Shown here: positions 6,001-9,000 of the stretch, one piece after another | How positions within the stretch are numbered: position 1 is the first letter of the stretch | Layout: each line of letters starts with the position of its first letter | IMG/VR virus record: IMGVR_UViG_2630968933_000007 | Coordinates: 53,025 to 117,024 of that record | DNA length: 64,000 nucleotides | DNA from: a virus | Taxonomy: Duplodnaviria; Heunggongvirae; Uroviricota; Caudoviricetes | Reading direction: 5' to 3' (one strand) | Program-made: the position numbers

Positions 6001-9000
6001 TGTAACTATGCCAAATTGCAGGCATAAAAAAGCCGCAAAGCTATCGGGTGCGGAGACCGCTTATTTGTTCAGTGCGATCAGTATGCGATAGCTCTGGCGG
6101 ATTTGTCAAATCGTGCAGTAACATCCTTTTCTTCCTTGCCATTTCTCAATGATGACAAAGGGTGGATTCGGATTGGTATTGGGACAAAAGTGAGACACAC
6201 AAAGCTTTGCATCGGCTTACAAAGCTTTGCATGTTTTTCAATGTTGGGACGTGTGAGCGCAGAAATGACGGGCTATCTAATTGATTTTAAACGATACGTA
6301 ACCAACTTTAAAATCTTTGCACGCCAGTTCGCAGGTTTTACAGCCAGTACAGCGGCTGGAATCGATAAAAAATCCATATTGTGTGGTCATGGGCTACTCC
6401 TTAAACCTTTTCGATCTGGACAAGATTGCTGTGCGACGGGTTTCCCTTTGCCAGCGGTGAAGGGCGGTGAGAGGTCAGAATATTGATACTGCCGCCGTGA
6501 TCGACCCGGTCACCAAACATATCCGCTTTAAGCCACGCACCTTGCCCGATGGCGGTAACGCCAGGCAGAATACGCGGAGTCACTTTTGCGGCAATCAGCA
6601 TTTCTCCATTATTGTTAAATACCCGCACGGTATCGCCATGACGGATACCGCGTGCCTGAGCATCAATGGGGTTGATCCACACCTCTTGTGGGCAGGCCTG
6701 CTGTAACACATCAATATTGCCGTAGCTGGAGTGGGTACGCGCTTTGTAATGGAAGCCCGTTAACTGCAGTGGATAGGTTTTCCGCAGGGGATCGTCCCAG
6801 CCATCAAAACCTGGGGTATACGCAGGAAGGGGATGAATAATTTCATCTTTTTTCAATTCCCAGGTATCTGCAATCTTCGCCAGTCGTTCAGAATAAATTT
6901 CGATTTTCCCCGAAGGTGTTTTCAACGGGTTTGCCTGTGGATCTTCACGGAATGCGCGGAAAGCGACGTAGTGTTCTTCCGGGCATTTTTTCTTAAAGAT
7001 CCCGGTCGTTTTCATCTCCTCGTAGTCGGGCATCTCAGGGTTACGTTCCTTCGTTTTCGCATGGAGATATTTGATCCATTCATGCTGACTGCGACCTTCA
7101 GTAAAGGTTTGATAAACGTCTGGTCCTAAGCGTTTGGCGACTTCACTCAGCATCCAGTAGATGGGTTTGCGTTCAAATTTTGCTGAGGTTGCGGGTTGGG
7201 CGAGGATCACATAGCCCATATTCCCTGCAGATTCATGAGAGATAAGGTCTTCTTGCTCTGTTGGCATCAGGTCGGGCAACAGGATATCGCAATACTTAGC
7301 CGAGGCCGTCATGAAGTGGTCAATGCCAACAATCATCTCGCACTTGCTGTCATCCTGAAGCACCTCATGGGTGTGATTGATGTCGCCATGTTGATTGATC
7401 AATGTGTTACTGGCGTAGCACCATAAAAACTTGATGGGGACATCCAGTTTTTCTTTTCCACGAACACCATCACGGGTCGCGGTCATTTCCGTACCATGGT
7501 CGATGGCATCTGTCCATGTAAAGACGGAAATCTGCGTTTTAACAGGATTCTCGAGCATCGGGAACCATTCTACCCCCAGATCCCAGCTACCTTCGCGTAC
7601 GCCTGAGTTGCCGCCGTTTATGCCGACGTTGCCGGTGAGAACGGAAAGCATGGCAATAGCGCGGGATGTTTGCTCGCCGTTGGAATGTCGTTGTGGCCCC
7701 CAACCCTGACAAATATAAGCAGGTTTTGCTGAACCGATCTCTCGTGCCAACTGGATAATTTTTTCTGCCGGGATGCTGGTGATTTTTGCTGCCCATTCCG
7801 GCGTTTTAGCTATGCCGTCAGGCCCTTCGCCCAGAATATAGGCTTTATAATGCGCGTTACGTGGTGCGTTGGCGGGCAGCGTTTTTTCATCGTAACCAAC
7901 ACAATATTTGTCGAGAAATGGCTGATCGACCATGTTTTCAGTAATCAGTACCCAGGCAATCGCACAGGCCAGTGCGCCATCGGTGCCAGGGCGAATGGGC
8001 AGCCATTCATCTTCACGCCCGGCAGCAGTGTCGTTATAACGTGGATCGATGACGATCATGCGTGCGTTTGAACGTTCGCGGGCTTGCTCGACGTAGTAAG
8101 TGACACCACCGCCGCTCATCCGCGTTTCTGCCGGGTTATTTCCGAACATAACGACCAGTTTCGTATTGGCGATATCATCCGGGCTGTTGCCATCATTGGC
8201 ACCGAACATATAACTCATTGCGGCACTGATCTGTGCGGTACTGTAGCTGCCATAGCGACTGAGAAAACCACCGCAAGAGTTCATCAGACGGTACGGGACG
8301 TTTGAGTTGGTGATGTTTCCGCCATCTACGCCTGTTCCGTACAGGACATGTACAGCCTCATTGCCGTAATCTTTCAGGATCCGCCGAAGATTATCACTGA
8401 TGGTATCCAGGGCTTCGTCCCAACTTATCCGTTCAAATTTACCTTCACCGCGCTTGCCGACGCGCTTCATGGGATATTTCAACCTATCAGGATGATTCAT
8501 CCGTCGGCGGATAGAGCGCCCGCGTAAACACGCTCGAACCTGATGATTACCGTAGACGTCGTCACCTGTCGTATCAGACTCCACCCAGTACACGGTGTCA
8601 TCTTTCACATGCAAACGTAACAGACAGCGGCTCCCGCAGTTAACGGTGCAGGAACTCCAGACCGCTTTCTCTTCTACCGGAGCCTCTGCCGCCCGGACCA
8701 TTTGGGAAAATGGCAGAGTGAAAGCACTGCTTGCCAGCGCAAGACTGCCAAGTGCGGAGGTTTTCATCAGACTTCTACGGCTGATTTCAGCCTTCATGAG
8801 CGCCTCTGTGGTATGGATTTTCATCATTACTCACTTATTGCTTTTCAAACAAAATGTCATGCCAGAATTTATGGTTGTCGTGGGTTATATTTTTTCGATC
8901 TCGACCAGATTAGTGTGCTGCGGGTTTCCCTTCGCCAGTGGTGAAGGGCGCAGAGTGGTTAGCGTATTCACACAGCCGCCATGGTCGATTTTATCGCCAG

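Follow-up and report, generated by a model that had tools for sequence, protein, structure and literature searches.

We are confident that the short open reading frame at positions 6277-6390 of the window (the whole stretch of 64,000 nucleotides analyzed here) marks the right-hand junction, attR, of a lambdoid prophage of ~62 kb that is integrated in the chromosomal gene ynfG. The frame lies on the minus strand, translates as MTTQYGFFIDSSRCTGCKTCELACKDFKVGYVSFKIN* and is a hybrid, consisting of 28 YnfG residues (MTTQYGFFIDSSRCTGCKTCELACKDFK), nine foreign codons (VGYVSFKIN) and a TAG stop. Its chromosomal part, from 6390 to 6306, is identical to ynfG (b1589) of Escherichia coli K-12 MG1655 at 85 of 85 nucleotides (blastn, E=1.3e-40) and at 28 of 28 residues, while all similarity to ynfG is gone past nucleotide 85, from where phage DNA continues. 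A preliminary description of this DNA had read the frame as the N-terminus of YnfG, diverging and stopping nine codons on after truncation by an element to its left. Translation and alignment agree with it in both respects, and the element can now be named as a lambdoid prophage. The frame starts 10 nt past the ynfF stop codon, and because the gene order is ynfE-ynfF-stub, position as well as sequence identifies the stub as ynfG and not dmsB. The features in this part of the window are:

1-6305, no strand: right arm of a Stx-phage-like, short-tailed lambdoid prophage (99.8% identity to the last 6.3 kb of phage PhiR5_2)
1-1882, plus strand: C-terminal 625 codons of a giant LPD38-domain protein (annotation, Pfam)
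2033-2557, plus strand: Panacea-domain protein (SocA/Panacea, PF13274; annotation, Pfam)
2646-3290, minus strand: IbrB-like protein (annotation, Pfam)
3275-4501, minus strand: IbrA/PAPS-reductase-like protein (PAPS-reductase/DUF3440; annotation, Pfam)
4698-5327, minus strand: AntA antirepressor (AntA/P22AR; annotation, Pfam)
5595-5861, minus strand: AntA fragment, a second, truncated AntA gene (annotation, Pfam)
6199-6232, no strand: 14-nt direct repeat ACAAAGCTTTGCAT in the att arm of the phage; two copies, 20 nt apart, at 74-107 nt from the core
6277-6390, minus strand: hybrid frame of ynfG codons 1-28, nine phage-derived codons (VGYVSFKIN) and TAG (translation, alignment)
6306-6312, no strand: 7-bp att core or overlap, CTTTAAA on the plus strand and TTTAAAG in the sense of ynfG (four-site alignment)
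6306-6390, minus strand: remaining 5' portion of ynfG, nt 1-85 (85/85 nt as in K-12)
6401-8827, minus strand: ynfF, intact, directly upstream of the ynfG stub (position, annotation)
8885-11311, minus strand: ynfE, intact, first gene of the operon (position, annotation)

YnfG is the electron-transfer (ferredoxin) subunit, of the DmsB type with four [4Fe-4S] clusters, of YnfEFGH, a putative selenate reductase complex. The K-12 protein has 16 cluster-ligand cysteines in four groups. The stub keeps group I only (C14, C17, C20 and C24), and the other 12 cysteines of the full set, at positions 67-145, are missing from it. The stub is thus a gene fragment and not a functional member of the YnfG family, and the 37-codon frame is an accidental fusion product. 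The same 84 nt are a pseudogene ('4Fe-4S binding protein, missing C-terminus') in the PGAP annotation of strain G1/2, the closest complete genome. For annotation, the value of this result is that the frame is recorded as a prophage scar and not as a new small Fe-S protein. As the preliminary description had noted for the remainder of ynfG and for ynfH, blastn and tblastn searches of the 64-kb window gave no match to the rest of ynfG, to ynfH or to dmsD.

The breakpoint coincides with a 7-bp core. Exactly one heptamer, TTTAAAG (ynfG nt 79-85, in codons 27-29), is common to attB of K-12, attL on the integrase side, attR in the window and the reconstructed attP. It occurs once in K-12 attB and at both attL and attR of G1/2, attL having been seen in relatives only. 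When the junction is used as a query, the match in phage-free genomes starts at window position 6306, the first base of the core. The core of attB is flanked by an imperfect inverted repeat, GCaAAGAT / ATCTTgGC, which on the lambda paradigm would represent the usual layout of core-type binding sites around the overlap. Joining the two phage arms across the core gives a predicted attP that has an exact 37-nt match in an IMG/VR contig (L008), where the arms are contiguous. Identity to this contig is 99.85% for the window arm and 98.2% for the integrase side, and the 7 bp of the core are exactly what the two alignments have in common. The record of phage 75/02 Stx yields the same attP when circularized. 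No uninterrupted attP was found in the GenBank phage collection, because all related records there are linearized at att. The window therefore holds the attR of a lambdoid prophage at the ynfG att site.

The preliminary description had proposed a search for a target-site duplication. A duplication of the transposition type was not found, and what both junctions do share is the 7-bp core TTTAAAG. Integration by a tyrosine recombinase is conservative and not transposition, so no strict target-site duplication arises and the shared core is what such a search recovers. A transposon or insertion sequence was rejected as the identity of the element, given that there is no transposase at the junction and that attL and attR have the structure that accompanies an integrase. 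In the mechanism that we propose, the phage tyrosine integrase would recombine attP with attB in ynfG, with strand exchange inside the 7-bp TTTAAAG overlap. Codons 1-28 of ynfG would thereby come to lie against the right arm of the phage, the part within the window, and codons 27-205, followed by ynfH and dmsD, would come to lie beside the integrase gene at the opposite end, which is not part of the window. For the left end in the window's strain we infer the order int (~1164 nt), a gap of ~52 nt, GTTGTTGC...CTTTAAA with the core, ynfG nt 79-618, ynfH and dmsD. The system resembles lambda Int/att in its tyrosine integrase, in a 7-bp overlap common to attP and attB, in the imperfect inverted repeats flanking the attB overlap, in the position of int next to attL and in the long phage arms with repeated motifs. 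In contrast to lambda, the integrase belongs to a different lineage, and attB lies inside a coding sequence that the phage does not rebuild, so that integration amounts to insertional inactivation.

The whole element can be followed in related genomes. Strain G1/2 matches the window at 99.2% over 25 kb (megablast), with no complete genome better, and at 100% over 3.5 kb around the junction. The window does not come from this strain, since the two are separated by 12 SNPs within window 1-1525 and diverge after 18509. The same 11 positions in the LPD38 gene (window 1-1525) differ from both G1/2 and PhiR5_2, which agree there, and past 1525 the window is identical to G1/2 for the next 17 kb. In G1/2 the element extends from 2517085 to 2578986 of the record and is a lambdoid prophage of ~61.9 kb. 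Starting from int, the order is exo/bet/gam, kil, cI/cro/cII and replication genes (O/DnaC-like), then nin genes, a nanS-type esterase and lysis genes, then genes for terminase, portal, an N4-gp56-type capsid and tail fibres, and finally LPD38, IbrAB and the antirepressors. Its far end is followed by the 3'-terminal 540 nt of ynfG (codons 27-205, 'missing N-terminus') and then by ynfH and dmsD, both intact. This arrangement recurs in the O104:H4 strain 2011C-3493, which encodes the identical integrase protein (WP_001387389.1) and likewise has ynfH and dmsD intact, and in both genomes 52 nt separate int from the 3' fragment of ynfG. The preliminary description had left room for the missing genes to be intact beyond the element and had suggested locating the 3' part of ynfG at its far end. 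In G1/2 and O104:H4 2011C-3493 this part (codons 27-205), ynfH and dmsD are indeed present ~62 kb away. The far end was examined in these close relatives, and by extrapolation from them ynfH and dmsD of the window's strain are most likely intact beyond the element as well.

The G1/2 prophage shows decay: an IS1 has inserted into it, and its terminase, portal, capsid and LPD38 genes carry frameshifts. In some hosts, therefore, the element may be defective, with excision or particle formation no longer possible. Neither this prophage nor PhiR5_2 has an annotated stx gene, and the region between Q and the lysis genes, where stxA/stxB would lie, is outside the window. The 3' fragment of ynfG is annotated inconsistently, as a pseudogene in G1/2 (L003 11546-12085) and as a protein in O104:H4 (L009 2261-2815). 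In O104:H4 and other genomes, PGAP calls it a 184-aa 'DMSO/selenate family reductase complex B subunit' (WP_000254426.1) that starts at a phage-derived GTG and is without cysteine group I. We also considered whether the phage rebuilds ynfG and rejected this, as the sole in-frame start that the phage supplies is a GTG 15 nt upstream of the core, giving MVSNN-FKDL..., again without group I. Outside the window, ~9 kb beyond dmsD in G1/2, tqsA is annotated as 'missing C-terminus' (L003 1097-1240; record 2506096-2506239), and phage genes (terminase large subunit) are annotated just past this truncated gene.

The integrase, taken from the far end in the relatives, is a tyrosine recombinase (Pfam PF00589, E=1.5e-45). 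At the DNA level it shares 99.4-99.9% identity with its counterparts in PhiR5_2, 75/02 Stx, POCJ13 and phiSTEC1589-Stx1c, and the next relatives after this ynfG group are the ev243/2G7b and P22/epsilon34-like phages at 75-81%. The ynfG att site and its occupation by such phages are already known and published. Lysogens of MG1655 with phiPOC-J13 carry the phage in ynfG as determined by PCR, and the homologue S1742 is used in S. flexneri (Gray et al., PMC4193171). Occupation of the same site has been reported for 75/02 Stx (PMC5447701) and for an Stx1a prophage of the avian strain RM10410 (PMC10562709). POCJ13 (phiPOC-J13, Stx1a) and 75/02 Stx resemble the present element in integrase DNA (99.4-99.5%), in their site (ynfG / S1742), in a right att arm that is 100% identical over 150-158 nt up to the core, and in general type, both being 933W-like lambdoid phages whose right end encodes antirepressors and a giant LPD protein. 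However, merely 57% of window 1-6300 aligns with them, at 93-94% identity, and their corresponding region is annotated with EaA, Ea22-like and DUF551 genes and has no IbrA/IbrB or Panacea annotation, unlike the window. They also carry stx1a, in contrast to the G1/2 prophage and PhiR5_2, which are without annotated stx. PhiR5_2 (PV340546.1), a temperate stx-less phage deposited as a complete phage genome with K-12 MG1655 as its listed host, is closer, at 99.8% over window 2-6289 and 99.9% over the integrase. Its gene order is the same (int ... LPD38, Panacea, IbrB, IbrA, two antirepressors), and it differs from the window at 11 positions, all in the LPD38 gene (window 4-1525). A literature search found no paper describing PhiR5_2. 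The O104:H4 outbreak strains (2011C-3493, C227-11 and HUSEC2011) carry a prophage in ynfG with an int-ynfG' junction at 99.8% and the integrase WP_001387389.1. Strain 2011C-3493 differs from G1/2 in that its ynfG 3' fragment is called a 184-aa protein and not a pseudogene.

Among 5426 complete E. coli genomes surveyed, the attR junction as in the window occurs in 82 and the int-ynfG' junction in 89, the O104:H4 outbreak strains included. A 1.2-kb K-12 query centred on attB is found at two separate places in 83 genomes and intact in at least 4686. The ynfG att site is therefore occupied in about 82-89 of the 5426 complete genomes, or about 1.6%. The K-12 query spanning the 3' end of ynfF, ynfG and the 5' end of ynfH (L004:2470-3670) was covered to below 80%, by a match that was not split in two, in about 560 of 5330 genomes. 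Examples match ynfH alone, or the ynfG start alone beside a 'molybdopterin-dependent oxidoreductase', which suggests a lineage with a divergent or rearranged 3' end of ynfF.

These counts bear on the other ways in which the truncated gene could be explained. The far end of the element is outside the window, and one may ask whether a later deletion or rearrangement took away the left portion of the prophage and, with it, the 3' part of ynfG, ynfH and possibly dmsD, leaving a remnant and an operon truly without these genes. The source strain is identical to none of the complete genomes searched, and related copies do decay, as the frameshifts and IS1 in G1/2 show. However, the junctions are near balance over the 5426 genomes (82 attR, 89 attL, 83 split attB), which leaves little room for one-sided remnants, and the closest relatives, G1/2 and O104:H4, retain intact ynfH and dmsD. 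We regard such a loss as highly unlikely.

The preliminary description had named two outcomes that would speak against a truncated ynfG, namely an assembly error at the junction and a native ynfG with this very sequence. A chimeric join of phage and chromosomal reads at a short shared sequence is extremely improbable. Nothing specific points to it apart from the fact that the join falls on a short, A/T-rich 7-mer, whereas the identical junction is present in 82 independent complete genomes assembled in different laboratories and on different sequencing platforms, the reciprocal junction is present in 89, and integration at ynfG has been confirmed by PCR in the literature (PMC4193171). The recurrence of the junction in so many genomes rules out an assembly artefact. 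That the organism's own ynfG properly ends here can be dismissed, as we found nothing in its favour, and the 618-nt gene is complete at this position in at least 4686 E. coli genomes. Past nucleotide 85 the DNA is that of a phage and runs into antirepressor genes, and the 28 residues carry just 4 of the 16 cluster cysteines.

The prophage right arm ends in a non-coding att arm between the AntA fragment and the core. About half of the right arm matches the right ends of 75/02 Stx, POCJ13 and many Stx1 and Stx2 phages at 92-94% identity. The Panacea gene and the IbrB-like/IbrA pair (2033-4501) are accessory genes of this arm. PADLOC assigned no defence system to the Panacea, IbrB, IbrA and AntA proteins, the PAPS-reductase domain of IbrA being weakly similar to BrxP/DndC. 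On the minus strand, two segments (5368-5453 and 5902-5990) match the Rfam family sRNA-Xcc1 (RF02221) over its full length, scoring 73.4 and 69.1 bits where the gathering score is 53. Both end 40 nt ahead of a start codon, that of an AntA-type gene on the same strand (4698-5327 and 5595-5861). They resemble a structured, conserved 5' leader belonging to phage antirepressor genes more than an sRNA that stands by itself. Each copy of ACAAAGCTTTGCAT holds the palindrome CAAAGCTTTG, and the pair forms a 17-bp hairpin at 6195-6234 (-22.7 kcal/mol, z=-4.1). This hairpin, at 72-111 nt from the core, has a T-rich tail on each strand. The repeats or the hairpin could be candidate arm-type sites for Int or an accessory protein, or a terminator at the edge of the prophage; alternatively, the hairpin could terminate transcription in both directions and so shield the prophage from that of the ynf genes.

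As for function, the stub has cysteine group I only and the 3' fragment lacks it, so no functional YnfG is expected while the prophage is present. The gene is split and, judging from its sequence, almost certainly inactive. As DmsB-type ferredoxin subunits are generally understood, neither piece is expected to assemble four clusters, and YnfEFGH should be inactive in lysogens. Judged by position, the ~62-kb prophage most likely separates ynfH and dmsD from the ynfE promoter. Read-through into them from the int side is conceivable, because both genes have the same direction as int. Scans for promoter and terminator consensus sequences around int-ynfG'-ynfH-dmsD and around the junction gave results at or near chance level. 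DmsD, encoded downstream of ynfEFGH, has been described as essential for the maturation of DmsABC (PMC12096835; PMC4464133). Strains lysogenic at ynfG would thus be expected to lack functional YnfEFGH and to have dmsD, needed in trans for DMSO reductase maturation, detached from the operon promoter. The source strain joins the ~1.6% of complete E. coli genomes with an occupied site, which is also used by Stx1-converting phages of Shigella and E. coli. Beyond correct annotation the result has little significance, with the left 6.3 kb of the window being the right arm of a 933W/POCJ13-type lambdoid prophage.

Regulatory consequences of the position and orientation of the prophage, through read-in to the antirepressors, detachment of dmsD and an excision switch, might exist, but we consider them unlikely. 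Anaerobic transcription from the ynfE promoter might pass through ynfF and the stub into the two same-strand antirepressor genes and so couple anaerobiosis to prophage derepression; between the stub and these genes there are only the hairpin at 6195-6234 and the structured sRNA-Xcc1-like leaders. Lysogens, including O104:H4, could show altered maturation of DMSO/S-oxide reductases unless read-through from int or an internal promoter supplies dmsD. YnfEFGH could also be switched on and off by reversible excision of the prophage ('active lysogeny').

A second, Qin-like lambdoid prophage occupies about 16,670-64,000 of the window, beginning beside rspB, and is presumably the right-hand counterpart of the left-hand element named in the preliminary description. 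In the G1/2 annotation it includes an integrase, an excisionase, dicB/dicA/dicC, relBE, hokD and cspB/F/I, together with lambda-type head and tail genes, ISEc12 in lom, and pinQ. The divergence of the window from G1/2, from 18509 on, falls within this Qin-like prophage.
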